DNA of 64,000 bases from a bacterium (GTDB taxonomy: Bacteria; Patescibacteriota; Minisyncoccia; Phycocordibacterales; JBBTRF01), in NCBI GenBank assembly GCA_037130265.1, contig JBAXTI010000002.1, positions 26,870-90,869 of the forward strand, given 5' to 3'. The notes under the pieces were generated by a model, which was not told the origin of the DNA, ran no database searches, and saw only the letters and a list, made by a program, of their open reading frames with translations. Below, one piece after another: positions 29,592 through 64,000 of the stretch. A program made the position numbers and the translations under genes. The stretch's first letter is position 1, and each line of letters begins with the position of its first letter.

Positions 29592-30986
<1,395 letters not shown>

Positions 30987-31078
30987 TTAGGACATGCACG
31001 AGTCTTTTTTGGTCTTGCGTCTTTCTAATGGTTCGTCTATAATAATACTACTCTAGCCGTAAATCCGGCTCCGAGATT

Positions 31079-31108
31079 CCTCCCAGCGATGGGAGGTTTC
31101 GTTTTTTT
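31079..31108 (+). terminator. rho-independent terminator candidate after eno
   Basis: The hairpin CCTCCCAGCGATGGGAGG is followed by TTTCGTTTTTTT. Confidence 0.55.
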
Positions 31109-31505
31109 AGAAACTGCTCTTAATACTTTCCAATAATTTTTCAAAAGGATTTAGGTCCATCCTCCACATTTTTCGCAAAAGTCTCTGAGCACTTATTGTT
31201 CGTAATTGTGAAAAGATGATCCCTCGATACACTCCTTCATGAAGATGTTTGTAGATGTAACGATCGTCCTTTTCTTTTCCTGTCAGCGGAGCGATCAGAA
31301 GCTTGTCCTTATTATATTTTTTCAAGACGATGACAGGTCTCTCGAATTTTTCATGCTTTCCATCCTCCTCTCTTCCAACGTTAACGCCCAAGCTCGCCCA
31401 CCACACCTCGCGTACATTGAAAGGGGTAGAAAATTGAGCATGGTTAAGCTCTTTCTTCACGATATTCCACCTGTCGAAATCTTTCAGGTATTCCTGCGGG
31501 TTCAT
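31107..31505 (-). CDS. PemK/MazF-family endoribonuclease toxin-like protein with ~30-aa N-terminal extension; no adjacent antitoxin ORF
   Basis: 'VREVWWASLGVNVGREEDGK..ERPVIVL..LLIAPLTGK...SQLRTISAQRL' aligns motif-by-motif with MazF/EndoA (GDVYFADLSPVVGSEQGG..RPVLVIQ...IVAAIT...EQIRTIDKQRL). Confidence 0.65.
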   Translation of the reverse strand: MNPQEYLKDFDRWNIVKKELNHAQFSTPFNVREVWWASLGVNVGREEDGKHEKFERPVIVLKKYNKDKLLIAPLTGKEKDDRYIYKHLHEGVYRGIIFSQLRTISAQRLLRKMWRMDLNPFEKLLESIKSSF

Positions 31506-31527
31506 CTATCTAGCCTAACAAAACAGC

Positions 31528-31563
31528 GATAAAGAAACTGCTAAAAAAGGCTAAAGAAATACC
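31528..31563 (-). promoter_or_regulatory. two TTTCTTTA-type direct repeats about 22 bp apart upstream of the PemK-like gene
   Basis: The minus strand reads GGTATTTCTTTAGCC...CAGTTTCTTTATCGC. The same motif family recurs upstream of the second PemK-like paralog at 63813-63869. Confidence 0.35.
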
Positions 31564-31584
31564 TAATTTTTGTTAAAGGAATCA

Positions 31585-31623
31585 TTAAAATAAAAAACGC
31601 ACGGAGAACTAAATCTCCGCGCG
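31585..31623 (-). terminator. rho-independent terminator candidate for the MFS gene
   Basis: On the minus strand the hairpin CGCGCGGAGA-TTTAGT-TCTCCGTGCG is followed by TTTTTTATTTT. Confidence 0.5.
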
Positions 31624-31653
31624 TTTGCGTTTTCTCTCGATGTTACTCGAACG

Positions 31654-32874
31654 CTACTCCCGCAGCTTCCGATACCTTCGGCACAGCCACCAGGCGCCGA
31701 GCGCGAGCGAGGCGCCTGACCAAGCCCATGTCACAGGAATTCCGGCATATTTTGCCGAAAGTCCGGAGAGTCCTAGGCCGATTGCCCCGCCAATATGGTG
31801 TGCCATCTTTGCACAAGACTCTGTCGTTGCACGGATTTCCGAGTCGGTGATCATGCGATGTATTGTCGTCTGAGAGACAGGTCCAAACACGCCTCGAGGT
31901 ATCTGGCTCAGGGTGAACAAGATCAACGAGAAGGGGAAGGGGCAGACCGCACTTGCTATGACCAATATGCCTGTCCACACCATTGACCTCTTCAATGTCG
32001 AGATAGGCTCTGTTTTTGTGCCACCGAAACGCAGGGCGACCTCACCCCCGACAGCACCACAGACCATCCACAGGCTCAAGAGACCCGCAAGCCAAAACAC
32101 AGACACGTGTTCTTTGAAGAGTGGCTGCCAGAGCATGTTGGTGCCCATACAAGCGAACGATTGTATGGCTGAGAGGAGTGCGAGTGTTCTAATCGTCGGG
32201 TCTTTCCGCGCGAAGGTGACACTGGCGCAAACTTTTCGTTTTAGTTCAACCCAGTGCGCGCGTATCGCGTGCGACTTGCGGACGAAGTAGTTTTCCTGCA
32301 TCAGGTATTTTGCAAGTATGGCGTGCCCGAGCATGAGGATGCCACTGACAATCCAACAGCCGGGCGGATAGAGCGAATATATCCATGCGCCGGTGAGGCT
32401 GCCGAAGATCCCGAACACGACCCCCACGCTATTTTCTCGTGTGAACAGGCGTGCTTTGTATGCCTCAAGTTCATCGCCACTCATGCCGGCATGTTTCAAG
32501 CTGTCTACTAGCCAAGCGCCGAAGGCACCCGACACGCAGGTGCTGCCGATCGCCAAGATCGCTTCGGCTGTGGCGAATCCAATGAAGGAGTCGGACAATC
32601 CGTAGATGATGAGACCAAGTGACCACAGGAGACTCGCCAACACATACAATGATTTTCGTCCGAACGTGTCAGCGTAAGCGCCGGTCGGTATTTCTGCCAG
32701 AAAAAGTGTGCAGAAGAACGCGATGTTAACGCCGTTGGCGAGGGCGTAGTCGTGCAGGTGGTTCATCAGGAAGTCCATATAGACTGCTCCGTGAAATGAA
32801 CTACCGCAAAACGTGCCAACGCCTTCGAGCCCGAGGTAGAGTAGGCCGATCTGTCGAGGTGAATGCTGTTTCAT
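31654..32874 (-). CDS. MFS transporter
   Basis: Twelve TM helices are predicted. 'GAYADTFGRK' matches the MFS motif A region between TM2 and TM3. Confidence 0.8.
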   Translation of the reverse strand: MKQHSPRQIGLLYLGLEGVGTFCGSSFHGAVYMDFLMNHLHDYALANGVNIAFFCTLFLAEIPTGAYADTFGRKSLYVLASLLWSLGLIIYGLSDSFIGFATAEAILAIGSTCVSGAFGAWLVDSLKHAGMSGDELEAYKARLFTRENSVGVVFGIFGSLTGAWIYSLYPPGCWIVSGILMLGHAILAKYLMQENYFVRKSHAIRAHWVELKRKVCASVTFARKDPTIRTLALLSAIQSFACMGTNMLWQPLFKEHVSVFWLAGLLSLWMVCGAVGGEVALRFGGTKTEPISTLKRSMVWTGILVIASAVCPFPFSLILFTLSQIPRGVFGPVSQTTIHRMITDSEIRATTESCAKMAHHIGGAIGLGLSGLSAKYAGIPVTWAWSGASLALGAWWLCRRYRKLRE

Positions 32875-32945
32875 AACGATGTGACCGCTGTATTTTGTTG
32901 TGAAGAACTACACGGCCGCAAGATCATTCTTGCTAGTTGAACCGT

Positions 32946-32990
32946 ACTGAACGCGGAACGAAAAATCCCGACTTCGTTCAGTCGGGATTT
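32946..32990. promoter_or_regulatory. perfect 11-bp inverted repeat (AAATCCCGACT-tcgttc-AGTCGGGATTT) with an overlapping alternative 8-bp inverted repeat, in the divergent MFS/gpmI intergenic region
   Basis: Read directly. ACTGAACG (32946-32953) pairs with CGTTCAGT (32975-32982) as a mutually exclusive alternative structure. Confidence 0.3.
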
Positions 32991-33227
32991 GTCTAAATGG
33001 TATTGGTCTCAGAATTACTGATTACAATAGGGATTTACACACATTGCGACTGAATAAAATGGGCTGTCGGTGTCCTTTCGGGACGCGACAAAGGCGCCAT
33101 AGAGGGTGGCGTTTGATCCAATATTCATATGTTCGCATGGGTAATGCATGGGGCGAATTATAGCACTTATCAATACTAAAGTCAACACTAGAAATGCGAA
33201 GCGAATACGAGGTAGAATAGATGTTCT

Positions 33228-34844
33228 ATGATACAAAAAAAGACCCAAGTCACCCTCATTATCCTCGACGGTTGGGGCTATCGAGAAGACTCGAAAGATA
33301 ATGCAATCGCATCGGCAAAGACGCCGAACTTCACGCGACTGTGGAATGCCTCGCCACATGCGTTGCTCCAGGCGAGCGGTGAATATGTCGGTTTGCCAGA
33401 TGGGCAGATGGGCAATAGTGAGATCGGCCACGCCACGATTGGTGCGGGAAAAGTGATCGACACCGAGCTTGTGCGTATCGGCAAGGCAATCCGTACTGGC
33501 GAGTTCGACAAGAATCCTGCTTTCATCGCGCTCTTCGATCATGTCAAAAAGAATCACTCGACACTGCACGTGCAGGGGCTGCTTTCCGATGGCGGAGTAC
33601 ATAGCCATCAGGAGCACCTTTACGCATTTTTGAAGGCCGCGAAGAAAAATGGTGTCACTCGTGTTGCTATTCACGCTTTCACCGACGGTCGAGACACGCC
33701 ACCTCAGAGTGCGGCGAAGTATTTGAAGAATCTCGAAAAGGTTCTCGCCGAAGTCGGCGTTGGTTTTATCGCGACAGTGTCTGGCCGATTCTACGCGATG
33801 GATCGCGACAACAATTGGGACCGTCTCGCCAAGGCAGAGCAGGCGATGTTTGAATGCAAGGGCAATGTCTGCACGATCAAGCCGTCGGCACATGTGGAGG
33901 CGCTCTACAAGCAGGGCAAGCTCGACGAACATCTTGAGCCGATCGTGTGCATGGGTCTCAGTGCCGATGGGTCCGAGGGTTCAGGGCCAGGTGCAAACGG
34001 CTGTGCTATCGAGGAAAACGACGCGGTCCTCTTCTTCAACTTCCGCGCTGACCGTGCACGCATGCTCTCACAGAAAATGCTCGAGAAGCAAGCGAAGAAC
34101 AATGTCTGCTTCGCTACTTTTACCGAATATTCGACTGAGTTCAAATGTCTCGTGGCGTTTCCGCCAGCGACCATCGAGACTACACTTGCCGGCGAAATTT
34201 CCAAAGCAGGTCTGACCCAGGCCCACATCGCGGAGACTGAAAAATTCCCACATGCTACCTACTTCCTCAACGGCGGACGCGAGGAGCCGTACGCAGGCGA
34301 GCGACATATTATGCTCGCGAGCCGTAAAGATGTGCCAACCCACGACCTCGCACCAAAGATGCGCGCAGAAGCTATTGCTGACAAGGCGATTGAGGAAATC
34401 AGTGCAGGTACGGACTTTATTTTCATCAACTTCGCCAATCCCGACATGGTGGGACACACGGCCAATGTTCCAGCGATCATCGAAGCGATCGAAGAGACCG
34501 ACAAACAGCTCGGCCGAGTGATGGATGCAATTGTTGCGCGTGCTGCCAAGGCGGGTACCAGAAACCTGGCGTTTATTACCGCCGATCACGGCAATGCGGA
34601 GATCAACATTGACCCAATCACCGGCACCAAGCACACTTCGCATACGTTGAGCCCGGTCCCTGCGATTTTGGCTGGCGCAGTGGGGCAGGGCGCGGTTGGA
34701 CAGGCGAGTACGACAAATGACTCGAAAAACGCCGCATCTTTGCCAAAAATCCACGATGGTGGCCTCTCCGATATTGCACCGACTATTCTAGCACTCATGA
34801 ATCTTCCACAGCCTGCGACAATGACAGGAAAAAGTCTGCTATAA
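33228..34844 (+). CDS. gpmI: 2,3-bisphosphoglycerate-independent phosphoglycerate mutase
   Basis: 'LIILDGWGY', 'GNSEIGHATIGAGKV', 'SDGGVHSH' and 'ITADHGNAE' are present. It has a BPG-independent PGM N-terminal domain. Confidence 0.9.
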   Translation: MIQKKTQVTLIILDGWGYREDSKDNAIASAKTPNFTRLWNASPHALLQASGEYVGLPDGQMGNSEIGHATIGAGKVIDTELVRIGKAIRTGEFDKNPAFIALFDHVKKNHSTLHVQGLLSDGGVHSHQEHLYAFLKAAKKNGVTRVAIHAFTDGRDTPPQSAAKYLKNLEKVLAEVGVGFIATVSGRFYAMDRDNNWDRLAKAEQAMFECKGNVCTIKPSAHVEALYKQGKLDEHLEPIVCMGLSADGSEGSGPGANGCAIEENDAVLFFNFRADRARMLSQKMLEKQAKNNVCFATFTEYSTEFKCLVAFPPATIETTLAGEISKAGLTQAHIAETEKFPHATYFLNGGREEPYAGERHIMLASRKDVPTHDLAPKMRAEAIADKAIEEISAGTDFIFINFANPDMVGHTANVPAIIEAIEETDKQLGRVMDAIVARAAKAGTRNLAFITADHGNAEINIDPITGTKHTSHTLSPVPAILAGAVGQGAVGQASTTNDSKNAASLPKIHDGGLSDIAPTILALMNLPQPATMTGKSLL

Positions 34845-34851
34845 TCTGAGC

Positions 34852-35907
34852 ATGTCGATTGCTCCTCCGAATCGTCTCCAACTGAATTTTTTTTACGTTC
34901 TCCTCGCGGTAATTTCTTTGACGTGTGTGCTTATTTTTCTTCCGTACGTCAGCGCGTTGTTTTTGGCGCTGGTGTTGTCGGTGATTTTTTACCCGCTCTA
35001 CCAGAGGCTTCGAAAGATGACATTCGGGTTCGATAGTGTCGCATCGGCGGCGACTGTAGTTTGTATCAGTATTCTTATTTTGGTGCCGTTGAGCATCTTG
35101 CTGTACTTCCTTTTTCAAGAAGTGAAGTCGGTATACAGCTACTTCACCGATGGTGGCGGCAGTGTCGTGTGGGCGGATTATCTCGGCCGAATGCAGGGGT
35201 TGCTCGGCCGTGTGTTGCCTGATAATTTGGTACCAGAAACAACGATTGGTGATTTGGAAAATTATCTCAACCAATTTTATCAGTGGATCGGTGCGCACTT
35301 CCAAGTCATTTTCACCAATGTACTGAGTATCTCCGGCAACCTATTCATTTTCGTTTTAGGATTGTATTTCTTCTTTCGAGATGGTGATAAGTTTCGAAAG
35401 ATGGTGCTCAAATTGTCGCCACTCAATGACCGCTACGACGAAACAATTTTGAGACGAATGGCCGTGTCCGTGAACTCCGTCGTGAAAGGTTCGCTTTTTG
35501 TGGCTGTGTTGCAGGGCGTATTGATGGGTATTGGTTTTTGGGTATTCGGCGTACCGAACCCTGTCCTCTGGGGCATGGTCTCGGTGCTTGTATCGCTGGT
35601 TCCTGGCGTCGGTATTGCAATCACTTTTGTGCCGGCCGCTCTGTATCTCGCACTCTCGCACGGACTCGGTTCAGCGGCCGGCATCTTTATCTGGAGTATG
35701 TGTGTTGTTGGGGTAACAGACAATATTGTCCGCCCACTCATTATCGAGCGTGGTGTGGCGATTCATCCATTCTTGATTCTCCTTTCCGTATTCGGCGGTC
35801 TCGGTCTCTTCGGCATTATCGGCTTCTTGGTAGGTCCAATCATCCTCAGCCTTCTTTTCGTGCTTATGGAAATGTACTCAGACATTGTCACTCCTCGGGC
35901 GGAATAA
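34852..35907 (+). CDS. AI-2E family transporter (PerM/YhhT-like, UPF0118)
   Basis: About 8 TM helices are predicted. 'NIVRPLII' and 'HPFLILLSVFGGLGLFG' are conserved C-terminal motifs. Confidence 0.7.
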   Translation: MSIAPPNRLQLNFFYVLLAVISLTCVLIFLPYVSALFLALVLSVIFYPLYQRLRKMTFGFDSVASAATVVCISILILVPLSILLYFLFQEVKSVYSYFTDGGGSVVWADYLGRMQGLLGRVLPDNLVPETTIGDLENYLNQFYQWIGAHFQVIFTNVLSISGNLFIFVLGLYFFFRDGDKFRKMVLKLSPLNDRYDETILRRMAVSVNSVVKGSLFVAVLQGVLMGIGFWVFGVPNPVLWGMVSVLVSLVPGVGIAITFVPAALYLALSHGLGSAAGIFIWSMCVVGVTDNIVRPLIIERGVAIHPFLILLSVFGGLGLFGIIGFLVGPIILSLLFVLMEMYSDIVTPRAE

Positions 35908-35948
35908 AGATATCCCCAAGTGGCAGGTCGGTATGCTATATTGAGTGG

Positions 35949-36857
35949 ATGAAATGGTTTCAAACAACGTGCATTGTTGCGCATAGTGGCAGTTTCCATC
36001 CCGACGACCTGTTGTCGGTGGCCACACTCCGGGCGCTACTCAAGGCTCGAGGTGTACGCTGTGTGAAGGTGGTGCGTACGCGTGAGCAGTCGGAAATCGC
36101 GAAGGCAGATTTTGTTGTTGATGTCGGTGGAGAATACGATCCTTCACGAAATCGATTTGATCATCACCAGGCCGCAGGTGCCGGTGTGCGGGCAAATGGT
36201 ATTCCGTACGCTTCTTTTGGTTTGGTGTGGAAGGCATATGGTGCAGAGTTGTGCGGTTCGGAGAAAGTGGCAGCCGCGATCGATGGTGAATTGGTGCAGG
36301 TAGTGGACGCGATTGATAACGGTGTGGAAATTTGTTCGTCGGTCATCGGCGATGTGCACCCGTATTCTTTTGGGCACGCACTTTCCGCCTTTTTGCCAAG
36401 CTGGAAAGAGCTCGCCGATACCAAGGTGACAGCAGACACTGCTTTTGCTGAAGCGCTAGTATTCGCTGAGACGGTGCTGACTCGAGAGATCATTCGCACA
36501 AAAGATGCCGAAGAGGGTCGGGTGAATGTGGAGAGGGCGTATCGAGAGGCGGTAGATAAGAGAGTTGTTGTGCTCGATCAGTCCTACGTGTGGGGTGACG
36601 TGCTTCGTGGGTACTCAGAGCCGCTCTACGTAATCTATCCGCAGGGTGGAGAAAAGTGGCATGTAAAGGCAGTGCGCAATGATCCGAATTCATTTAAGAA
36701 TCGCAAGGATTTTCCAGTGTCGTGGGCGGGGAAGCGTGATGCAGAATTCGCCCAATTGACCGGCGTTTCTGATGCGCTCTTTTGCCACAAGAACCTATTT
36801 CTGGCAGTGGCCAGTTCGCTCGAAGGAGCCAAAAAGCTCGCGAAATTGGCCATTTAG
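35949..36857 (+). CDS. MYG1-family (UPF0160) metal-dependent hydrolase
   Basis: 'VAHSGSFHPDDLLSVATLRALL' matches the MYG1 'GTHNGTFHCDEALACALLR' N-terminal motif. The ORF-track N-terminal extension from 35538 overlaps the previous gene in another frame and is rejected. Confidence 0.6.
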   Translation: MKWFQTTCIVAHSGSFHPDDLLSVATLRALLKARGVRCVKVVRTREQSEIAKADFVVDVGGEYDPSRNRFDHHQAAGAGVRANGIPYASFGLVWKAYGAELCGSEKVAAAIDGELVQVVDAIDNGVEICSSVIGDVHPYSFGHALSAFLPSWKELADTKVTADTAFAEALVFAETVLTREIIRTKDAEEGRVNVERAYREAVDKRVVVLDQSYVWGDVLRGYSEPLYVIYPQGGEKWHVKAVRNDPNSFKNRKDFPVSWAGKRDAEFAQLTGVSDALFCHKNLFLAVASSLEGAKKLAKLAI

Positions 36858-36884
36858 GCGTTTTTAACGTATAGTGTTGGAACT

Positions 36885-37922
36885 ATGGCCTTTATAGACG
36901 ACATTGTTATTCATTTGAAGGCCGGCAACGGCGGTCACGGCGTGGTCCGTTGGCGTGCAGAAAAGGGCAAGCCAAAGGCGGGTGCCGCAGGCGGAAACGG
37001 TGGCCACGGGGGCTCGGTTTTTCTGCATGCGATCCGTGATATCGGTGTGTTGGTACGCTATGCCACCGAGAAGAAATTTAGCTCGGAAGATGGCCTTTCT
37101 GGCATGAAGAAGAGTATGGATGGTCGCGGCGGCAAGGATTTACATCTCGATATCCCGCTCGGCTCGATTGTCACCAACATGACGACTGGCGATGTCTATC
37201 AATTTTTGAAAGATGGCGAAGACATCTGTGTGCTTGATGGTGGTCGCGGTGGTCTCGGTAATGAATATTTCAAATCATCGACCAACGTCACCCCACTTCA
37301 GCAGACCGATGGTAAAAAGGGGCAGGAGGCGGATTTTCATATCGAATTGCAGCTTATCGTAGACGCGGGTTTTGCGGGCTTTCCCAATGCCGGCAAATCC
37401 AGCCTTTTGAACGCGCTCACGAATGCTCGCGCGAAGGTGGCGAGCTATCAATTTACCACACTCGAACCAAACCTCGGCGACTTTTACGGTTTCATTCTCG
37501 CGGATATTCCAGGACTCATCGAAGGTGCGTCGGCTGGCAAAGGTCTCGGTCATAAATTTTTGCGACACATCGCCCGCACCAAACTCGTATTTCATTGCAT
37601 TTCTCTCGAGAATGAAGACATCATGCAGGCGTACAAGACGATTCGTGGTGAGCTCGAGGCATACAGTCCTGAATTGGCTGAGAAAAAAGAGCTCATTATT
37701 CTCACAAAGACCGACGTGCTCACTCCCGAGCAGGTAGAGACTGCTGTGAAGAAGATGAAGAAGCTCAAGAAAGATGTGCTCACTGTTACCATTGCAGATG
37801 ATGCTTCAGTAAAGGCGTTTGCCGATAAGCTCGTTGCGATTTTGCGAGCAGAAGAGAAGGCTTTTGCGGTGGCGGCGGAAAAAGCGGCTCTCGAAAATGA
37901 AGGCGAGTTCAAGAAAGACTAA
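36885..37922 (+). CDS. obg: GTPase Obg/CgtA
   Basis: The Obg fold N-terminus 'FIDDIVIHLKAGNGGHGVV...GGNGGHGG' is present. G1 is 'GFPNAGKSSLL' and G3 is 'DIPGLIEGA'. Confidence 0.9.
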   Translation: MAFIDDIVIHLKAGNGGHGVVRWRAEKGKPKAGAAGGNGGHGGSVFLHAIRDIGVLVRYATEKKFSSEDGLSGMKKSMDGRGGKDLHLDIPLGSIVTNMTTGDVYQFLKDGEDICVLDGGRGGLGNEYFKSSTNVTPLQQTDGKKGQEADFHIELQLIVDAGFAGFPNAGKSSLLNALTNARAKVASYQFTTLEPNLGDFYGFILADIPGLIEGASAGKGLGHKFLRHIARTKLVFHCISLENEDIMQAYKTIRGELEAYSPELAEKKELIILTKTDVLTPEQVETAVKKMKKLKKDVLTVTIADDASVKAFADKLVAILRAEEKAFAVAAEKAALENEGEFKKD

Positions 37923-37992
37923 AGAAAAGATCAAGGAGAGATAGAGAAATGTGAGAGGGGCAAAATTATCAGAGATATGAGAGAATAGCGGT

Positions 37993-39474: not shown

Positions 39475-39582
39475 GTAATTCCTTCGAGTTGTCCACACTT
39501 TTGGTGAAAAAAAGCTGGGGGTAAGGAATGATTTTTGTAGTATACTATGTGTATTCGGTCCTTCCGTAATATATACATAATA

Positions 39583-40032
39583 ATGATGAGCAAAATTGGA
39601 AATGTTGCGGCGGTCGGTCTCCTGGTAGCTGCGGGGTACTCTCTTTCGCTGGGAAGTGAAGGGCGGGCACAATTGGCGGCCGCTTCGATGGTCGTCGTTG
39701 ATTCTGGTTCATCAATATTGGCCAGCGCTCGAGATTTTACCGGAGAGTTTTCTGAAGCCGTCCAGCACCTTTCTTTTGCGAATGTGTATGCGATAGTTGG
39801 CGAGCTCTCTGGAATAGCTTCTCCAGATAAGCAAACGTCTGAGGGGTTGGTTGTTGCCGAAAAAACAGATGGGCTCGCGGATGCAAATCAGGAGGAGAAG
39901 ATACGGAGTTCTTTTTCTGACAAAGTGATCATTCATCAGGATGCTTCAAAAAAATCCGGGACGATTACGCCGGTGTTCAGAGGCGAAGAGGGTGATAAGT
40001 ATATGTACGTGATGGTTCCAGTAAAGAAATAA
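39583..40032 (+). CDS. hypothetical small membrane-anchored/secreted protein
   Basis: It has an N-terminal hydrophobic helix (MMSKIGNVAAVGLLVAAGYSL) and no recognisable motif. It is the first gene of a co-directional surface-protein array. Confidence 0.4.
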   Translation: MMSKIGNVAAVGLLVAAGYSLSLGSEGRAQLAAASMVVVDSGSSILASARDFTGEFSEAVQHLSFANVYAIVGELSGIASPDKQTSEGLVVAEKTDGLADANQEEKIRSSFSDKVIIHQDASKKSGTITPVFRGEEGDKYMYVMVPVKK

Positions 40033-40046
40033 ACTAAATAAACAAA

Positions 40047-40721: not shown

Positions 40722-40745
40722 TAACTAGGTGTATAATACGAGTAT

Positions 40746-41735: not shown

Positions 41736-41745
41736 TAAGGCTTTT

Positions 41746-42501: not shown

Positions 42502-42508
42502 TACCAGC

Positions 42509-43951: not shown

Positions 43952-44002
43952 AAAAAAGTCGATATAATCCACAGTCTGAATTGTCAAAATACTGCTAAAA
44001 TA

Positions 44003-44011
44003 AAGGCTAAT
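44003..44011 (+). promoter_or_regulatory. extended -10 element TGCTAAAAT upstream of the giant ORF
   Basis: Read directly. It lies 22 nt upstream of ATG 44034. The same TGnTA(T/A)AAT form recurs before the LamG and gap genes. Confidence 0.3.
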
Positions 44012-44033
44012 CGGACGGAAACGACGATTAGAA

Positions 44034-50000: not shown

Positions 50001-53000
50001 CTCGGAGTCACCGGTGCTACTACTCTCTCCTCAACTCTCAATGTCACCGGCCTCACCACCCTTGGCAACGCTTCTACTACCCAGATCGGCTCAACCGGTT
50101 CTGCGTACTTTGCGACGAGTGGGGGGAATGTGGGCATCGGGACGACATCGCCTGGTTCGAAACTTGATGTAAACGGAGATATCAATGCGAACACTTATTA
50201 TCGTTATAAAGGCGGGATATTTGTCAACGCATCATCAACTAAACAGAATATGTTCGTCGGTATGGGTGCTGGAAATCTCACCACAACTGGAATTGGTAAT
50301 ACTGCGATTGGATATAATTCTGGCGCTGCACTAACAACTCAAAATGCCAGCATTAATCCTTTTCCAGTTCAAGCTGACACATTCATTGGAACGAACGCTG
50401 GCGCAGCGAATACTTCAGGAGATTCTAACGTTTTTGTAGGTTACAATGCTGGCGCAGTAAATACTTGTGGTCGCTCGACAGTTGCAATCGGTGCCTATGC
50501 TGGGGCGAGCTATGTGAGTGAGCCTGGATGTCCAGATATTGAAAATGGACTAAACGTCTTTATCGGTTCAGCTGCTGGACAATATATTACTGCTGGTTTG
50601 CATAACGTCTTTATTGGTGAAGATACTGGGCTACTCATGCAAAGTGGCTCGAACAACACCTTCCTTGGTTCGCATGCGGGCACAGGAATACTTACTGGCA
50701 ATGAAAGCACATACATCGGCGGTAGTGCTGGAGATTTCGCTTCAACTACTGGTGATGGAAACATCGGTATCGGAGTAAGATCTGCTCTATATCTTGATGG
50801 TTCCGCACAGTATAACGTTTTTCTTGGGAATGGCGCTGGCGCAGGTACTGAGGCTAATCCTAACGTAGCTTCGTTTAACACAGCTGTTGGTACTGGGGCA
50901 GGTTATCTGTTGACTACAGCCACTGGCGCAACTTTCTTGGGCTATCAAGCTGGATTGCAGGTCACCACTGGATACAGTAACACTCTTGTCGGTTATCAAG
51001 CCGGGTGGAATCTAGTGAGCGGTGTAAATAACACCTTCTTGGGTTATCAGGCTGGTTATAATACAACTGGTTCAGCAAATATTTTCCTTGGTGATCAGGC
51101 GGGAGCTTCTAATACTACTGGCTCAAACCAGTTTGTGGCCGGTGGAGATCATGCAAACTATCTCATTAGCGATGTATATTTCGGTCGAGGTATAAACAGC
51201 GCGACTCCTAGCACGTACACTATCCACGGAACTGGTGGCCTCGGTACAAATATTACTGGTGGTGATATCAATATTGCTGGTGGAGCAGGAACAGGATCTG
51301 GAGTGGGTGGAAATATCATTTTCCAGACTTCGAATACTGGGAGCTCAGGAACTACTTTGAATACGCTCTCCGAAAAAATAAGAATTACTAATTCTGGGAA
51401 AATAGGCATCGGTACTACAACCCCATGGAGGACGCTCTCCGTGAACGGATCATCCGATCTCGGTACCAACGCTCTCGCTGGATACTTCACCGCAACCTCG
51501 ACCACCGCTTCCACCCTCCCATACGCTTCCACCACCGCACTCTCCGTCTCCGGAGCTTCATACTTCACCGGCCTTTCAACCTTTGCCAACCTCCTCGCCA
51601 CCGGATCTTCCACCCTCCAGAACTTCACCTTCGTGAATGCTACTGGTACCTCAGCTACCACCACCAACTTCTTTGCTACTACTGCATCTTCTACTAACCT
51701 CTTCGCAAGTACCGCTACATTCAACGCCGCTTCAATTGGTACCACTCTTTCAGTCACTGGCCTTACCACTCTCGGCAACGCTTCTACTACTCAGATTGGT
51801 TCAACTGGTTCTGCATACTTTGCGACGAGTGGGGGGAATGTGGGCATCGGGACGACGACGCCAGATGGAAATTTAACTGTATATAATCCGTCAGGAGCAA
51901 GCACAGTAGATATTATGGGAAGTAGTGCTGGGTCATTGCTTAGGATTTCCCAGGGAAGCACTTTGGCTCAAGGAACAATTGATTTGGGAGTACACTCACC
52001 ACAGGCTGGTTTATTCCGTAGTGGCGGCACAAGTGGATTTGTTGCGTACGATACTGGGACTGGTGACACTATATTGAATAATGTTTTCGGTGGATCTAGT
52101 TTGTTGAGATTAAATTACGGTGGGACTACGGCTTTGGCAATAAATAGTAGTGGCAACGTCGGCATCGGCACCACCTCTCCTGGCCAGAAGCTTTCAGTGG
52201 CGGGAGATATCTTGGGTAATGTCCACATCGGTACATACTTCACTGCAACCTCCACTGCCGTGGCTTCTACCTTCCCATACGCCTCAACCACTGCACTCTC
52301 AGTCTCTGGAGCTTCATACTTCACCGGCCTTTCAACCTTTGCCAACCTCCTCGCAACCGGCTCCACCACCCTCCAAAACTTCACCTTCGTAAATGCAACA
52401 GGAACTAATGCAACGACAACGAATTTCTTTGCAACTACGGCGAGTTCAACTAATCTTTTTGCTTCAACTGCCACCCTCAACACTGCTTCAATTGCAAATA
52501 CTCTCAATGTCACCGGCCTCACCACCCTTGGCAACGCTTCTACTACCCAGATCGGCTCAACCGGTTCTGCGTACTTTGCGACGAGTGGGGGGAATGTGGG
52601 CATCGGGACGACGAGCCCGACGACGGCTTTGTTGGCAATCCAAAATAGTTCTGGACATTCATTCGATATATTTAGCACCGCAAATGGTTCTGCTGGGACA
52701 GCGATGACGATCAATGTAAATACTAGTTCAGCAAAAGCTCTGCAGATCAATTCAAATACGACAGACACCCCAATTACTGTGACTCACGTAGATCCTGGAA
52801 ACGTCCGAAATGCGGATATTTTCGGTATCAATATAAGTGAGACCCTAAACTCGATTGGCAATATCGGTGCCAATGATTACAAGTACGGTGGCGGAAACTT
52901 TGAGGTAACACAAAATGCTTCACCAGCTACTGCAAAAGATGTGTTCGGTGTTCGAGGAGTTTCAACAGCAAACAATGTTAATTTTACTGCGTACGGCGGA

Positions 53001-58466: not shown

Positions 58467-58471
58467 TCCAC

Positions 58472-60565
58472 ATGCACACTTACTTCTCTAAAATTTGTTT
58501 CGGCGTCAGTCTCACGGTTCTTTTATTGTGCAGTGTGGTTCCTGTGTATGGAGCTGCAAAAATCAATACACCAGTGACTGGTCAAATGAATACAGGGCTT
58601 GTTGGGTACTGGACATTCGATGCTCCTGATACGAGTTTTGTATCGAATACTGTTACTGACAAGTCGGGAAGTGGTAATACCGGAACAATGATCAGTATGG
58701 CTACAAGCACCTCACGAGTCCTCGGCAAGCTTGGACAGGCACTCTCTTTTGATGGGGTGGCGAAATATATCTCATTGCCAAATCTCGATAGGCAGGCCCC
58801 TTTGTCCATCGCTTTTTGGACAAAAAGAGGGAGAACCGGGCAGGCGAGTGACAACATTATTGGGGGGAGTTGCGGATCGTGGGGGATTGGATTCAATGCA
58901 AATAATACACTTTTTTTGACAAACACGTGCGTGAATGTCGCAAACTCAACGGGTACTATTGCGGATACTACAAAATGGCATCATGTAGTCGTCACCTACG
59001 ATGGTTCGAATGCTCGTTTTTATTTCGACGGAGCTCTGGATTCTTCTCCGGTGTATGCAAGCGGTACGTTCAATAGTAGTGCGGTGGCGTATACGATTGG
59101 CAGAGTAAATGTTACTGCCTATTACAAGGGTTCGCTCGATGATGTGCGTGTGTACAGTAAAGTTTTGAGTCAGAGAGAGGTGACCACTTTGTATACACTT
59201 GGCCAAGAAACCATCCAGAAGTCACAGAATAATAAGGTGACTAGCGGCCTGACGCATCTGTGGACATTTGATGGTGCTGATCTCAATACAATTACAAAAA
59301 CCGTGTATGATCGAGCTGGGACCACCAACGGTACTATTGTGGCTTTGGCGACAAGTACTCAGTTGGTAAACGGCGCTCTTGGTCAGGCTTTTAATTTTAA
59401 TGGAACTAGTCAGTATGCTTCTTTAGCCGATATTAATACAGCCCTTAATCCACCGGCAAGTATTGCTCTATGGATAAAGCGCGGACAAACCAGCGCTGCC
59501 GCTGATGAGGGTATAATCGGGTACTCCGGTTCTGGATGCACCGGTCAAAATGTGTGGGGGGTCGGTATTGCTTCTGGAGCGAATGCGAATAAACCATTTC
59601 TTACTGAGGTTGGTATTGGCGCGCAGTATCCAACAGGCACTATTACCGATCGTAATTGGCATCATTTGGTACTAACGCTAGATGGTACGAATATTCGTTT
59701 CTATATTGATGGAGTTTTGGACTCCACGGTGGCAAATGCTACTACCTTTACCTGCGTTGCTTCTTCTGCGTTTGCCATTGGAACAGTTAATACTAGTGGT
59801 TGGTACAAGGGAGCGGTCGATGACATCCGTATGTATAATAGAGTTTTGTCTGCGAATGAGGTTAAAAGTCTCTATTCGATTGGTAAATCTACCATCCAGA
59901 AATCACAGAATACAAAGGTAAATACGGGGCTTGTTGGACTATGGTCTTTTGATGGGGCAGACATGACTTCAACTGTAGCCACCGACCGAAGTGGCAATGG
60001 TTATAATGGCACACTCACGAACATGACCCTCAAGAATGTAGTCACCCCAGGAAAGATTGGCCAGGCTCTCCAGTTTCAAGGTGGTTCGGCGTATATACTC
60101 ACCGCTAACGATATTATGAGTAATCCGACCGGTCTAACGATCGCATTTTGGATGAAGTCGGCCACTATCCCTGCATCAACCCAACGCGTGTTCTCCGTTG
60201 AAGGAGCTTACGTGATCACTCTGACCACGGCCGGCAAACTGCAGGGCATTGTGGATGGTGCAGAAGCCGAGTACGCGCAGACTTCTGTTATCAGCGATAA
60301 CAAGTGGCACCACGTCGCGTTTACGCATAATGGCGCAATTGCGGGTGGAAGGATCTATGTCGATGGGGTGGCGAGTAGTACGTTTACGGGTTCCTCGTAT
60401 AGTGGATTCTATAATATTAACTCTCTGACACGCCCTGTCGCCATCGGTGGAAATGTTTCCCCGAACCCCATCTCGCCATTTATTGGCTCGCTCGACGATG
60501 TTCGGCTGTATAATAGAGTCATCACCAATGCAGAGATCACTCGTCTCTATAGCATAGGAAAATAA
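58472..60565 (+). CDS. secreted protein with three tandem LamG-like (concanavalin A-like lectin/glucanase, Laminin_G_3-type) domains
   Basis: A signal peptide is present. Three repeats each begin 'GL(V/T)G(Y/L)W(T/S)FDGAD' and end 'DDVR(V/M)Y(S/N)(K/R)VLS..E(V/I)..LY'. It lies 5 nt after the giant ORF stop. Confidence 0.8.
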   Translation: MHTYFSKICFGVSLTVLLLCSVVPVYGAAKINTPVTGQMNTGLVGYWTFDAPDTSFVSNTVTDKSGSGNTGTMISMATSTSRVLGKLGQALSFDGVAKYISLPNLDRQAPLSIAFWTKRGRTGQASDNIIGGSCGSWGIGFNANNTLFLTNTCVNVANSTGTIADTTKWHHVVVTYDGSNARFYFDGALDSSPVYASGTFNSSAVAYTIGRVNVTAYYKGSLDDVRVYSKVLSQREVTTLYTLGQETIQKSQNNKVTSGLTHLWTFDGADLNTITKTVYDRAGTTNGTIVALATSTQLVNGALGQAFNFNGTSQYASLADINTALNPPASIALWIKRGQTSAAADEGIIGYSGSGCTGQNVWGVGIASGANANKPFLTEVGIGAQYPTGTITDRNWHHLVLTLDGTNIRFYIDGVLDSTVANATTFTCVASSAFAIGTVNTSGWYKGAVDDIRMYNRVLSANEVKSLYSIGKSTIQKSQNTKVNTGLVGLWSFDGADMTSTVATDRSGNGYNGTLTNMTLKNVVTPGKIGQALQFQGGSAYILTANDIMSNPTGLTIAFWMKSATIPASTQRVFSVEGAYVITLTTAGKLQGIVDGAEAEYAQTSVISDNKWHHVAFTHNGAIAGGRIYVDGVASSTFTGSSYSGFYNINSLTRPVAIGGNVSPNPISPFIGSLDDVRLYNRVITNAEITRLYSIGK

Positions 60566-60589
60566 ATTACGCACGTTTGAAGAAAACAC

Positions 60590-60598
60590 TGCTATAAT
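60590..60598 (+). promoter_or_regulatory. extended -10 element TGCTATAAT upstream of the second LamG gene
   Basis: Read directly. It lies 13 nt before ATG 60612. An identical 12-mer, CTGCTATAATTA, sits at 62690-62701. Confidence 0.35.
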
Positions 60599-60611
60599 TA
60601 ATTCCACTCTA

Positions 60612-62687
60612 ATGATCAGAGAGACTTACAAAAATTCCTCACCTCTGGCAGTTTTATTCCTGCTCGGGACCATTTTCTTGCCGATTTTTGCCCACGCATC
60701 AGCGAAGGTGAATGTCTTGGCTCGACCGAAAAACACCTCAGGCCTCATAGGGTATTGGTCTCTGAATGGTGCGGATATGAACGCTACAACTGCATTCGAT
60801 CGTAGTGGAAATGGATACGACGGGACTTTTCAAGCCATGGGCCTCAGGAATGTTATATCGGGAAAAGTCGGACAAGCTCTTTCTTTCGATGGTTCAACTG
60901 CGTATATTTCACTTCCGAACCTTGATCGTCAAGCACCTCTTACGTGGTCATTTTGGGTAAAGCGAGCAAGATTGGGCCAGGCGAACGAGGATTTTTTTGG
61001 CGGTGACAGTAGTGGTGCGTGGGGTTTTGGATTCAATGCTGACAATACGATGTTTCTTACAAACGTCGGAATTAACAGCGTGAGTTCGACTGGTGCCATT
61101 GCAGATACAGACTGGCACCATATTGTGGTGACGTATGATGGATCAGACGTCAGTTTTTATTTTGATGGAGTTTTGGACTCGGCGCTGAGCTATTCCAGCG
61201 GCACGTATAATAGTAGCGGTGCCGCATATGCAATCGGCAGGGTGAATGTCAGTGCATATTTTGAGGGTAGGCTTGATGAAGTGCGCATGTATGATCGTGT
61301 ATTGGCTGCCCCCGAGGTGAGGACTTTGTATCAGGACTCGGCAGCGAAAATTTTAGGTCCATCGTCTGGGAACTCTAATGTGTCTAGTGGTCTTATTGGT
61401 TTTTGGTCTTTCAATAAGGAGGATGTGGTAAATGGAGCGCTTGTCGATCGAAGTATTTCGGGAAATACAGCATATCTTCAAAATATTGCTACTTCAACGG
61501 TTTACAGCGCTGGTCGTATTGGGCGAGGCCTTACTTTTGATGGTTCTGATGACTATGCGGTGACAGGCGCTACGACCTGGGGTATTACGAACACTCTTTC
61601 GATGTCTGCGTGGATTAAGACAACGGCTAATGCTGTTTCGATCGCTGAGCTTGGGCGCGTCACTGTCTTGGACGAGGCTTTGCTGTACATTCATAATAAC
61701 AGTGCGGCAATCTTCTTTTCTCAAGGGGCTGGTGTATATACTGGAGTATATGGTTCTAGGCAGGTCAATGACGGTCAGTGGCATCACGTGGTCGCTGTTT
61801 CGACTGGGCCAAGTATTGCCTGTGCAAATGTAAGGATATATGTGGACGGTGTTCGTGATACTGAGAATTGTATTACTGAAAATGTGTCGAGTCTAAGTGA
61901 CGCATCGCCACGCAGATTCTTTATTGGTTGGCGAGCTTGGGGTGGTGGTACCTCTGAGATATACAATGGTAGTGTCGATGACGTGCGTCTGTATGGTCGT
62001 GCGATAAGTGCTAGTGAAGCTCTGCAGCTGTACCGCATGGGAATTACTACAAAAGCCAATGTTTCGCAGAATACTAAGGGTCGTAACGGTCTCGTGGGTC
62101 TATGGTCTTTTGACGGGGCCGATATGGTGGCCGGGACAACAGCGTATGATAGGAGTGGTAATGGGTATGATGGCATATTGAGTGGTCTGTCTGCTCCGAA
62201 GATTGGCGTGGGAAAAATTGGTCAAGCGCTTCGGCTGCATGGGACGAGCGGTTATGTAAGTGTCTCCAATCTCGATATGAACACCTTAAGTACTTTTGGT
62301 TGGATTAACACGACTGTAGTGGGCAATCAGGTTATCGTGGCGACTCTGGCAAATGGTGGGTGGTCATTCTTCCTAGGGGCAGGTAATAACCTCACATTTC
62401 TCAAGAGAGGTATCGGTGGGGTGACTTCAAGTGCTACTATCGGGACTAATGGCTGGCATTATGTCGGGGTTACCTATGATGGTGCGACGGCAAAATTTTA
62501 CATCGACGGTGTTTTGGATAGTTCAAATGCCTATAGTCAGACATTCAACAATGGCTCCGTTGGGTACGGTTTGGGTGGTATTGAGATCGGTGGATACACC
62601 GTCACTGGCCGACTTGATGATGTTCGCGTCTATAATAGGGTCCTCACGGCGAGCGAAATTAGAACGATGTATAACCAAGCTAAATAA
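60612..62687 (+). CDS. secreted triple LamG-like domain protein, paralog of 58472-60565
   Basis: It has the same signal peptide plus three-repeat organisation (GLIGYWSLNGADM..., DDVRLYGRAISASE..., DDVRVYNRVLTASEIRTMY). Confidence 0.8.
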   Translation: MIRETYKNSSPLAVLFLLGTIFLPIFAHASAKVNVLARPKNTSGLIGYWSLNGADMNATTAFDRSGNGYDGTFQAMGLRNVISGKVGQALSFDGSTAYISLPNLDRQAPLTWSFWVKRARLGQANEDFFGGDSSGAWGFGFNADNTMFLTNVGINSVSSTGAIADTDWHHIVVTYDGSDVSFYFDGVLDSALSYSSGTYNSSGAAYAIGRVNVSAYFEGRLDEVRMYDRVLAAPEVRTLYQDSAAKILGPSSGNSNVSSGLIGFWSFNKEDVVNGALVDRSISGNTAYLQNIATSTVYSAGRIGRGLTFDGSDDYAVTGATTWGITNTLSMSAWIKTTANAVSIAELGRVTVLDEALLYIHNNSAAIFFSQGAGVYTGVYGSRQVNDGQWHHVVAVSTGPSIACANVRIYVDGVRDTENCITENVSSLSDASPRRFFIGWRAWGGGTSEIYNGSVDDVRLYGRAISASEALQLYRMGITTKANVSQNTKGRNGLVGLWSFDGADMVAGTTAYDRSGNGYDGILSGLSAPKIGVGKIGQALRLHGTSGYVSVSNLDMNTLSTFGWINTTVVGNQVIVATLANGGWSFFLGAGNNLTFLKRGIGGVTSSATIGTNGWHYVGVTYDGATAKFYIDGVLDSSNAYSQTFNNGSVGYGLGGIEIGGYTVTGRLDDVRVYNRVLTASEIRTMYNQAK

Positions 62688-62700
62688 TTCTGCTATAATT

Positions 62701-63774
62701 ATGACCATGAAAAAAACACGAGTAGCGATTAATGGTTTCGGGCGAATCGGACGAGCTTTTTTGAAGGTTGCACGCGAGCGAGCGTTGAGTGGCGAGACGG
62801 GTGCAGATGATCTCGAGGTTGTGGCGATCAATGACCTTGGTGATATCAAGAGTTTTGCATACTTGCTCAAATATGACACTGCGTATGGTCCGAGTGGAAT
62901 CGATGTGAAAGTGAAGGCCGACAATTCCGCACTTATTATAGACGGCAAGGAGGTGGCGTTTGTGAGCGAGAAAGACGCGACAAAATTGCCTTGGATGAAG
63001 CTCGGTGTTGATGTGGTAGTGGAATCGACTGGCCTGTTCACGAGCTACGACAAGGCTCAGGTGCATATCACTGCAGGAGCGAAGCGTGTGGTAATTTCCG
63101 CGCCGGCGAAGGACGAAGCCGGAGTCGCCGGCGCACCTGCTGTGAAGGGCGAAACTGTTTTAATGGCCATGAACGAAGAGATGCTCGCCACTTGCCAGAT
63201 CACTTCAAATGCATCTTGTACTACCAATGCGGGCTCTCCTTTGTTGGCAATCTTGGACGAAGCTTTGGGTGTAGAAAAAGCGTTACTCAACACTGTGCAT
63301 GGTTACACTGCCAGCCAGTCTTTGGTAGATGGACCAAATAAGAAAGATTTCCGTGAGGGTCGTGCAGCTGCTCAAAACATCGTCCCATCTTCGACTGGTG
63401 CGGCAATCGCCGTCACCAAAATCATCACTCATTTGCAAGGGCTTTTTGACGGCGTGTCGATGCGCGTTCCTGTGGTGACTGGCTCTATTGTTGACGTCAC
63501 TTTTATATCGAAGAAAAATACTACCACTGAGGAAGTGAATACCATTTTGAAGAACGCCGCTCGCGCGCCACGCTGGAAGGGTATTTTTACCGTCACCGAG
63601 GAGCCTTTGGTCTCGAGCGATATCATTGGCAATCCGCATGCCTCTATCGCCGACCTCGCCTTCACTCGTGTCGTCGGTGGCAATTTGGTCAAAGTGATGG
63701 CTTGGTACGACAACGAAATGGGGTACACCTACACCCTCGTGGATCATGTGGCGAAGGTGGGGAAGTTGGTCTAA
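62701..63774 (+). CDS. gap: glyceraldehyde-3-phosphate dehydrogenase
   Basis: 'RVAINGFGRIGRAFLK' is the NAD-binding region. 'SNASCTTN' is the catalytic Cys motif. 'WYDNEMGY' is at the C-terminus. TGCTATAAT abuts the ATG at 62701, so the true start may be the next in-frame ATG at 62707 (MKKTRV) as a leaderless transcript. Confidence 0.9.
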   Translation: MTMKKTRVAINGFGRIGRAFLKVARERALSGETGADDLEVVAINDLGDIKSFAYLLKYDTAYGPSGIDVKVKADNSALIIDGKEVAFVSEKDATKLPWMKLGVDVVVESTGLFTSYDKAQVHITAGAKRVVISAPAKDEAGVAGAPAVKGETVLMAMNEEMLATCQITSNASCTTNAGSPLLAILDEALGVEKALLNTVHGYTASQSLVDGPNKKDFREGRAAAQNIVPSSTGAAIAVTKIITHLQGLFDGVSMRVPVVTGSIVDVTFISKKNTTTEEVNTILKNAARAPRWKGIFTVTEEPLVSSDIIGNPHASIADLAFTRVVGGNLVKVMAWYDNEMGYTYTLVDHVAKVGKLV

Positions 63775-63812
63775 TACTGCCCTAATTTTCTTTTTAGCTA
63801 GAACTCATCAAA

Positions 63813-63869
63813 ACTTGAGCATTTCTTAGTCGTTTCTTTAACATTTCTTAGCGATTTCTTGATCGGACG
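63813..63869 (+). promoter_or_regulatory. array of four or five (A/G)TTTCTT(A/T)(G/A) direct repeats at ~11-bp periodicity upstream of the second PemK-like gene
   Basis: ATTTCTTAG (63813), GTTTCTTTA (63824), ATTTCTTAG (63835), ATTTCTTGA (63846) and GTTTCCTAT (63861) are followed by TATAAT at 63875-63880. The motif is the same as upstream of the first paralog. Confidence 0.35.
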
Positions 63870-63886
63870 TTTCCTATAATAGAGGG

Positions 63887-64000
63887 ATGTCTCAAAAAGA
63901 TTTTGATGGGTGGAGCGAAGTTAAAAAACGCACAAATGCTGAGTCGCCACGACTCTACACGGTACGTGAGATTTGGTGGTGCCGACTTGGAGTAAATATT
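63887..64000 (+). CDS. PemK/MazF-like toxin paralog, 3' end lies outside the window
   Basis: The translation 'MSQKDFDGWSEVKKRTNAESPRLYTVREIWWCRLGVNI' parallels 'KDFDRWNIVKKELNHAQFSTPFNVREVWWASLGVNV' of the 31107-31505 gene, including the unusual N-terminal extension. Confidence 0.5.
   Translation, partial: MSQKDFDGWSEVKKRTNAESPRLYTVREIWWCRLGVNI

Follow-up and report, generated by a model that had tools for sequence, protein, structure and literature searches.

The DNA analysed here, a window of 64,000 nt from contig JBAXTI010000002.1, carries two genes for MazF/PemK-like toxins and a predicted small RNA gene that runs against the 3' end of the first of them. Copy 1 of the toxin gene lies on the minus strand (31107..31505) and encodes 132 aa, with an N-terminal helix at residues 3-22 that is followed by the MazF core. 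The small RNA of ~59 nt (31048..31108, plus strand, start predicted near 31050) converges on its stop codon. Copy 2 lies on the plus strand (63887..64000) with its first 38 codons, MSQKDFDGWSEVKKRTNAESPRLYTVREIWWCRLGVNI, inside the window, where the open reading frame (ORF) runs off the end; the complete ORF of 128 aa was read in the same contig past that point (L002:11187-11573, in an extract, L002, that starts at about window position 52701). Upstream repeats with a promoter, the toxin ORF and the convergent RNA gene make up a cassette whose three parts are conserved across hundreds of species, and the helices of the RNA covary.

The toxin genes and the search for a protein partner

Both genes scored above the cutoff of 23.1 bits for the Pfam family PemK_toxin (PF02452), copy 1 with 30.3 bits over residues 32-131 and copy 2 with 45.1 bits, and they are 37% identical to each other (E 1e-24). 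An earlier, sequence-only reading of this DNA had described them as paralogous MazF/PemK-like genes with a common N-terminal extension, and both parts of that description are borne out: ~31 residues of copy 1 lie ahead of the PemK_toxin match, and the motif KDFD(R/G)W..VKK precedes the core in each copy. NCBIfam assigned no family to the toxin, PADLOC returned nothing for it below E 0.01, and its sole label in PHROGs was "MazF-like growth inhibitor".

An AlphaFold2 model of copy 1 (mean pLDDT 83) placed an alpha-helix at residues 3-22 ahead of a MazF barrel. The top 50 Foldseek matches in the PDB were all structures of MazF-family toxins (MazF, YdcE, MoxT, mRNA interferase) with a TM-score of ~0.7, normalised to the target, and the best folds among them were MazF of S. 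aureus and of B. subtilis. When copy 1 was aligned by hidden Markov model to B. subtilis MazF (4mdx/1ne8), R56 fell on the catalytic R25 and T75 on T48. By sequence and fold, the toxin itself is an ordinary member of the PemK/MazF family.

A profile built from the first matches retrieved 341 clusters (50% identity) at E<=1e-30, full length including the extension, and 1,887 such clusters at E<=1e-10; a second search gave at least 2,498 clusters at 90% identity (E<=1e-10). Those clusters of the subfamily with a named source come from Patescibacteria (Wolfebacteria, Magasanikbacteria, Uhrbacteria, Moranbacteria and others), and at least 516 loci, counted with one genome per species, encode a relative. 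Since full-length matches across the subfamily include the extension, it is a trait of the whole subfamily and not peculiar to these two genes, and it is predicted to be alpha-helical family-wide. Invariant residues are W13, K17, W35, W36, G40, N42, E46, G49, K50, R56, P73, R108 and L109, and F10 and T75 are among those conserved in at least 90% of the subfamily. The catalytic Arg and Thr, whose loss the sequence-only reading had named as a mark of a non-toxic scaffold, are therefore retained; copy 2, as read from its sequence, has Ser at the position equivalent to Thr75. Two homologs (L031:1949-2356 and L046:2995-3381) each have one in-frame stop inside the conserved N-terminal region, and these may be pseudogenes, assembly errors or cases of recoding. 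A search of 2.9 million viral contigs found a single relative, and a phage origin was rejected on this ground; the module is chromosomal.

A protein antitoxin was sought in the window, in the surroundings of copy 2 in the same contig, and in 80 species-level genome loci, which are those most similar to copy 1. Near either toxin gene in the contig there were only spurious small ORFs. The ORFs that flank the toxin gene in the 80 homologous loci range from 40 to >900 aa, lie on both strands and include pheS and other housekeeping genes, and in ~10 loci the toxin gene begins <=5 nt from a large upstream gene. The 40 small ORFs among these flanking ORFs are mostly spurious and none of them recurs between loci. 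No gene for an antitoxin of the MazE/PemI/AbrB or ribbon-helix-helix type adjoins the toxin gene at either copy or in the 80 loci. The earlier claim that no protein antitoxin is adjacent thus extends from the two copies to the homologs, among which no conserved small antitoxin ORF recurs, nor does one stand beside the complete copy 2; and this is indeed not a canonical mazEF operon. Both genes belong to a large, mostly Patescibacteria subfamily of putative MazF-fold endoribonuclease toxins that have no adjacent protein antitoxin.

A predicted small RNA gene convergent on the toxin stop codon

The sequence-only reading had called the toxin genes apparently antitoxin-less and had missed a likely partner: in nearly all members of the family, the stop codon of the toxin gene is met from the other side by a conserved, predicted small RNA gene, which is the obvious antitoxin candidate. 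Copy 1 and its syntenic ortholog of 73% identity (L004) have in common an element just past the stop codon, with a hairpin that shows compensatory changes, and the element is duplicated in L004. More than 20 of the 80 genome loci have the exact 10-mer CCGAGATTCC on the opposite strand, directly after the toxin stop, and the element is visible in nearly all of their downstream regions. Across 45 aligned RNA genes, the -35 element is TTGAC, with TTG in at least 90%, and is followed by a 17-nt spacer that often ends in TG and by a -10 element TAnnnT with an invariant last T. The predicted start lies ~7 nt further on, near ACAAAUGG, and is followed by hairpin 1 (e.g. GGCC-UUCG-GGCC), an invariant C-CCGAGA, a long GC-rich hairpin 2 and the tail UUUCGUUUU. 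The conserved promoter, hairpins and T-tail together identify the element as a predicted small RNA gene that carries a promoter and an intrinsic terminator of its own.

With a covariance model of the element (R1), 74 of 79 genome loci gave a full-length match at the toxin stop and on the strand opposite the toxin, with scores of 17.6-72.7 bits. RNAalifold, run on a MAFFT alignment, recovered both helices with compensatory change in 8/9 pairs. In the model alignment of 92 matches, 89% of cells pair, and double-sided compensatory changes were counted in 212 cells, compared with 60 +/- 5.5 after shuffling and 18-36 with slid partners; this alignment was fitted to the covariance model, and the independent result from MAFFT and RNAalifold agrees with it. 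The stems hold 18 G.U vs 7 A.C pairs on the proposed RNA strand; from this excess, the promoter and the T-tail, the RNA was placed on the strand that does not encode the toxin.

The placement of the RNA relative to the toxin gene was equally regular: its modelled 3' end reaches or overlaps the end of the toxin ORF in 64 of 78 instances, and in 45 of those 64 the overlap is only 0-12 nt and lies at the stop codon. The modal overlap is 2 nt, so that the toxin stop codon UAA is the complement of the U-tail of the RNA. In 19 of the 78 instances the toxin ORF reads on into the RNA region with no stop before it. Such read-on ORFs are found at L009, L022, L036, L048, L058, L084, L085, L096, L098, L100, L112 and others, and at several metagenome loci too; they run through the complement of the RNA and end in recurring predicted C-terminal tails such as ..KNETPP..GGESRRPKP or ..GNLGGRSH. 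Tandem RNA copies lie downstream of one toxin gene at L004:5398-5576, L014:3380-3528, L075:3396-3538 (two) and L116:1671-2629 (three). The promoter-proximal copy in L004 has no U-tail, so both copies there could form one co-transcribed dimeric precursor.

At copy 1, the predicted promoter of the small RNA (31015..31043, plus strand) was read from the sequence as TTGCGT, a 17-nt spacer and TATAAT, and it aligns with the near-invariant TTGAC-N17-(TG)nTAnnnT of the 45 homologous elements. Its -35 element matches the consensus at only 3/6 positions, which is why a simple promoter scan did not flag it. The RNA itself consists, in order, of hairpin 1 (AGCCG..CGGCU), the CCGAGA junction, hairpin 2, which is the terminator (CCUCCCA..UGGGAGG), and a U-tail that shares positions with the stop codon of the toxin gene (31107-31109). 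Its prediction draws on the covariance model (49 bits and E 2e-16 over 31048-31107), a terminator scan, which reported CCTCCCAGCGATGGGAGG then TTTCGTTTTT at 31079-31096, and folding (-23.3 kcal/mol and z -3.8 for 63 nt), besides the covariation. None of the 4,227 covariance models of Rfam matched in the window at gathering thresholds, nor did any match the RNA element at E<=1 in four loci with canonical copies, and the window contains neither tRNA nor tmRNA genes.

The counterpart at copy 2 lies outside the window, at about L002 11549-11627 on the minus strand, where the covariance model gave 10.8 bits. Hairpin 1 (UUGGCUUCGGCCU) and an antisense TATAAT are kept there, and the junction is altered. 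The stop codon of copy 2 is spanned by another hairpin, GTCGCC..GGCGAC, with T-runs on both strands, which makes it a bidirectional terminator. Copy 2 thus probably keeps a diverged RNA partner, a prediction I hold with lower confidence than that for copy 1.

The association was also approached from the RNA side, by searching metagenome contigs with a 19-mer from the RNA, on DNA only and with no protein reference. This returned 49 stretches, of which 4 were chance matches in high-GC coding sequence (L091, L103, L132, L136) and 45 were genuine. About 30 of the genuine RNAs converge on an intact PemK-like gene and ~9 adjoin PemK remnants or truncations, so that ~39/45 lead back to PemK-like genes or what remains of them. 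The other 6 have as neighbours a ClpS gene, a RhuM-like gene, a class II aminoacyl-tRNA synthetase-like gene (a label read from the sequence), a 133-aa ORF, and in two cases no clear adjacent gene. The toxin-RNA association therefore holds searched from either side. A toxin gene without RNA at its stop codon is rare (5/79 genome loci), and RNA without toxin does occur: this is the asymmetry expected of an antitoxin.

Two other identities of the element were rejected on a reading of the alignment and the loci. It does not encode a small peptide, as an AUG near the 5' end is missing in at least 9 of the 45 sequences and indels are not multiples of three; and it is not an integron attC site or a DNA element like the repetitive extragenic palindromes, given its conserved sigma-70 promoter, the missing R'/R'' consensus and its single, dispersed sites. 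Pairing in trans between the RNA and the 5'-terminal 60 nt of the toxin mRNA gave no signal, with cognate energies equal to non-cognate ones (z ~0.1), and there was no clear depletion in the toxin ORFs of 5-mers derived from the junction, which might have hinted at a cleavage motif.

The element may still be no antitoxin at all and be instead a terminator or insulator, an element of the 3' untranslated region of the toxin mRNA, or an RNA with other targets, in which case the protein would be a non-toxic housekeeping or RNA-processing nuclease. The chromosomal location of the family amid core metabolic genes, often in operons with them, would suit such a role, as would the single match in the viral contigs and the silence of PADLOC, and the RNA terminator in the window could serve the adjacent enolase gene too. 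However, a near-consensus promoter faces the toxin gene and meets a terminator after ~55 nt, and so serves no other gene; neighbours vary from locus to locus, whereas the toxin-RNA pair is constant; RNA copies persist beside decayed toxin remnants; and the catalytic residues of the toxin are intact. I consider this explanation distinctly unlikely.

Phased upstream repeats and a third cassette

Upstream of each toxin gene lies an array of direct repeats. The patterns RTTTCTT-N4-RTTTCTT and TTTCTT-N12-16-TTTCTT each have 3 matches in the 64-kb window (vs 0.14 and 0.02 expected, respectively), and all matches lie upstream of the two toxin genes and nowhere else in the 64 kb. The putative operator array of copy 1 (31527..31560, minus strand) has three direct 11-bp units, ATTTCTTTAGC, CTTTTTTAGCA and GTTTCTTTATCG, the middle one degenerate. 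That of copy 2 (63821..63864, plus strand) has four clean direct 11-bp units, ATTTCTTAGTC, GTTTCTTTAAC, ATTTCTTAGCG and ATTTCTTGATC, which are flanked by degenerate units, one of them at 63784-63797. The sequence-only reading was right that phased repeats stand upstream of both genes, and was wrong in the number for copy 1, which has three units and not two.

The arrays are followed by the toxin promoters. Copy 1 has an extended -10 element, TGTTAGGCT, at 31512..31520 on the minus strand and copy 2 a -10 hexamer TATAAT at 63875..63880 on the plus strand; both were read from the sequence and both end 6 nt before the ATG. TGnTAnnnT is present in 28 homolog loci and ends 6-7 nt before the ATG in 24/28 of them, so that a leaderless toxin mRNA is predicted. 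When the 78-nt stretches ahead of 82 family genes were compared, common 5-mers peaked at offsets of 11, 22 and 33 only (z 12.7, 13.9 and 4.3), and phased repeats are present in 33 of these 82 upstream regions, with TTTAT, TTTCT, TTCTT and TTATC as core words. Because the array lies upstream of the predicted transcription start, the repeats would act as DNA; that they are an RNA array of the type III kind is ruled out, as the array precedes the extended -10 element that ends 6 nt before the ATG. Further upstream of copy 1, the terminator scan predicted an intrinsic terminator of the major facilitator superfamily (MFS) transporter gene (31595..31626, minus strand), a 13-bp stem then a T-run; this predicted terminator insulates the copy 1 promoter from read-through.

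A third cassette was found in the same contig, ~2 kb past the window end (L002:12990-13690, equal to window positions 65690-66390). Its gene (L002:13051-13569) encodes 172 aa with a sub-threshold match to the PBECR3 nuclease family (25.2 bits, cutoff 30), and it is preceded by TTTCTTTATC repeats and an extended -10 element and followed by a canonical convergent RNA, at L002 13586-13639 (50 bits). The upstream region is the same as that of copy 1, with TTAACAAAAATTAGG ... TTAGCAGTTTCTTTATCG and then the extended -10 element TGCTACGAT. The arrangement recurs in another genome, where an ortholog of 67% identity (L138) comes with four TTTCTT repeats, the -10 element and the RNA; more distant PBECR3-like homologs have no RNA and follow a gene of ~250-280 aa instead. 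By my own count, the distance between the start of the proximal TTTC and the -10 hexamer is the same, exactly 20 nt, at copy 1 and copy 2, in L004 and L138, and at the PBECR3-like gene. Since the PBECR3-like gene shares the repeats, the -10 element and the RNA with the PemK-like genes, promoter, operator and RNA would frame an exchangeable toxin ORF: the predicted cassette is independent of the toxin family.

This third cassette bears directly on what reads the repeats. The sequence-only reading had offered a common trans-acting repressor or, alternatively, the N-terminal extension itself as their binder. The idea of a common regulator gains support from an unrelated PBECR3-like gene, and its ortholog, with the same repeats and promoter; the idea that the extension binds them is weakened, as the PBECR3-like gene has the operator but no such extension. 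In its full form, the latter idea holds that the toxins are truly antitoxin-less and that the extension is a fused DNA-binding or auto-inhibitory segment, one that attaches to the TTTCTT repeats or blocks the active site. F10, W13 and K17 are conserved family-wide in a segment that is predicted to be helical, the repeats accompany the toxin gene in ~40% of loci, and the acidic-plus-Trp motif DFDxW presumably recalls C-terminal segments of MazE, a resemblance that I take as a lead only. Against this, besides the PBECR3-like gene, ~60% of the family keep the extension without repeats and many members are co-transcribed with upstream housekeeping genes, a helix of ~20 residues makes no recognised DNA-binding domain, and the near-universal small RNA is left out of account. 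I regard this model as highly improbable.

The N-terminal helix is instead, with somewhat better than even confidence, a predicted part of the toxin fold of the subfamily and not an operator binder. With similar confidence, the repeats may be taken as a putative operator for a trans-acting DNA-binding factor that would co-regulate all such cassettes in the genome. Direct repeats one helical turn apart are typical of cooperative binders, for example proteins of the OmpR/PhoB type or ribbon-helix-helix proteins, and this serves as a lead only. A tblastn search with an approximate PhoB query found no PhoB-like gene in ~100 kb of the contig, a result that is uninformative for the rest of the genome.

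As for the wider surroundings, copy 1 is flanked by the MFS transporter gene and enolase and copy 2 by GAPDH and rpiB. Both toxin cassettes sit amid genes of central carbon metabolism (window 29643-34844 and 62700-64000), the first between enolase and iPGM, and the second between GAPDH and rpiB-rpe-transketolase. The enolase/iPGM site is syntenic in the related genome of L004, where the MFS transporter gene of the window is lacking. Upstream of GAPDH (window 58472-62687; L002:1-9987) lies the gene for a giant predicted surface protein, which has at least 4,810 aa and matches Bact_surface_Ig-like and, weakly, Peptidase_S74, and two paralogous Laminin_G_3 proteins of ~690 aa each are encoded between it and GAPDH, directly upstream of the latter.

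Proposed mechanism and known toxin-antitoxin systems

Taken together, I lean towards the reading that the small RNA would be an antitoxin that acts through its 3' overlap on a MazF-fold toxin, as a cis-antisense RNA of the type I kind. The cassette would then work as follows. Two to five T-rich direct repeats, phased at 11 bp, and an extended -10 element would direct a leaderless mRNA of the toxin ORF, and a convergent RNA gene of ~55-60 nt with a strong promoter of the sigma-70 type would yield an RNA whose terminator U-tail is the complement of the stop region. In the direction of the toxin, the hairpin is preceded by A's and not followed by U's, and hence offers no toxin terminator before the RNA gene; the toxin transcript should read through the RNA gene and so carry a perfect complement of ~55 nt to the RNA. 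An abundant small RNA would pair with this 3' end of the toxin mRNA in the type I manner, and the outcome may be duplex cleavage, mRNA decay or transcriptional interference. If the duplex were cut at the stop codon, what is left of the toxin transcript would be a non-stop mRNA, which suggests a speculative route to tagging the toxin for degradation. One ORF that resembles RNase III (rnc) by sequence reading (L089:82-810) has an orphan RNA copy ~350 nt downstream; it touches on the idea of duplex cleavage, and this proximity is probably a coincidence.

Several observations weigh against an antitoxin that acts by 3' overlap. The promoters and the points at which transcription starts and ends were predicted from consensus sequences, although promoters of these organisms are poorly characterised, and the 80 loci are those closest to copy 1, so that the toxin-RNA association may weaken in distant members. 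The RNA of copy 2 is strongly diverged, as its 10.8 bits indicate, and the repeats are seen in only ~40% of loci. Five loci (L025, L070, L109, L127, L135) have only an RNA copy that is upstream of and divergent from the toxin gene, where pairing in cis is impossible; these loci form a sub-clade, in which the RNA often lies beside a decayed 3' remnant of a toxin gene. The CCGAGA junction is invariant at phylum-level divergence, which a purely cis-antisense mechanism does not need. The invariant junction and the divergent-only loci hint at recognition of the RNA by a protein, as in type III systems.

The small RNA could accordingly be an antitoxin that attaches directly to the toxin protein, either as a pseudo-substrate or as an inhibitor, in the manner of ToxI and ToxN, and does not act by pairing with mRNA. 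ToxN-type toxins of type III systems share the MazF/Kid fold, C-CCGAGA and hairpin 1 are near-invariant in sequence when the toxin proteins are only 40-50% identical, the five divergent loci permit action in trans only, and RNA copies stand in tandem in L004, L014, L075 and L116. However, in two genomes this RNA is found beside the gene of an unrelated PBECR3-like protein, which is unexpected of a protein-specific inhibitor; the RNA is normally single, downstream and on the opposite strand, whereas known type III repeats are upstream and on the same strand; and the exact placement of the RNA 3' end on the stop codon would have no purpose in a protein-binding model. This alternative appears rather unlikely to me, and RNA that acts through the 3' overlap stays the reading I prefer.

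A broader proposal builds on it: a new class of toxin-antitoxin (TA) module may be widespread in Patescibacteria, in which a portable RNA antitoxin of ~55 nt converges on the stop codons of RNase toxins, mostly of the MazF fold and PBECR3-like in at least one lineage, independently of the toxin family and with a phased-repeat operator and leaderless promoter. I put this forward tentatively, as having a little less than an even chance of being right. No published description of this toxin-RNA module was found in the literature searched, whose coverage was incomplete, so an earlier account is possible.

MazF is the standard example of a type II toxin, and MazF genes that stand alone ("solitary") tend to be set aside as orphans. 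In the present case, across hundreds of species of a reduced-genome phylum known largely from metagenomes, a MazF subfamily without a protein partner is accompanied by a conserved RNA gene that is not in Rfam, which provides a concrete family of non-coding RNA (ncRNA) for Patescibacteria and a candidate regulon whose mark is an array of repeats phased at 11 bp. Should the RNA prove to be the antitoxin, the module would be a new TA architecture, with a type II toxin fold under RNA control of the type I or type III kind, and the RNA and promoter cassette would be reusable with another nuclease toxin. It would also give the first example of RNA neutralising a toxin of the MazF family, and the boundary between type I and type III would become less sharp.

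Set against the known classes, the module fails the defining feature of type II, a protein antitoxin, one feature of type I, a small hydrophobic toxin, and the locus plan of type III. With the type II systems MazEF and PemIK (Kid-Kis) it shares membership of the toxin in PF02452, the predicted SH3-like barrel of the MazF/Kid fold and the catalytic Arg and Thr. Unlike them, it has no adjacent gene of the MazE/PemI/AbrB type (window and 80 homolog loci), its toxins add the N-terminal helix and a longer loop, by ~5 residues, between strands 1 and 2, and it has a leaderless promoter of its own and the convergent small RNA.

Among type I systems, 3'-overlapping convergent antisense RNAs are known from bsrG/SR4 and txpA/RatA of B. 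subtilis and from par of pAD1, where RNA I (Fst) and RNA II share a terminator. The likeness lies in a predicted strong-promoter RNA that runs toward the toxin gene and overlaps its 3' end, and copy 2, like pAD1 par, has a bidirectional terminator common to both predicted transcripts. The toxin differs, being a soluble, MazF-fold putative RNase of 128-132 aa, whereas type I toxins are small hydrophobic peptides (<~60 aa); the RNA has no complementarity to the 5' end of the toxin mRNA; and its sequence is conserved across a phylum, unusually for a cis-antisense RNA. With the type III systems ToxIN, CptIN and TenpIN, the module has in common a putative endoribonuclease of Kid/MazF-like fold, an ncRNA, occasional tandem RNA copies and no protein antitoxin. 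Its toxin, however, is PemK (PF02452, the sole Pfam match) and not ToxN/AbiQ, CptN or TenpN, and its RNA is downstream, on the opposite strand and usually single, whereas type III loci have an upstream repeat array on the same strand with a terminator between array and toxin gene. The nuclease-like toxins of the type I systems SymE/SymR and RalR/RalA were also compared: the toxin folds differ from the one described here, SymR is reported to overlap the 5' end and RalA to act in trans through a complementarity of 16 nt, and what they share with the present module is the pairing of an enzyme-type toxin with a small RNA.

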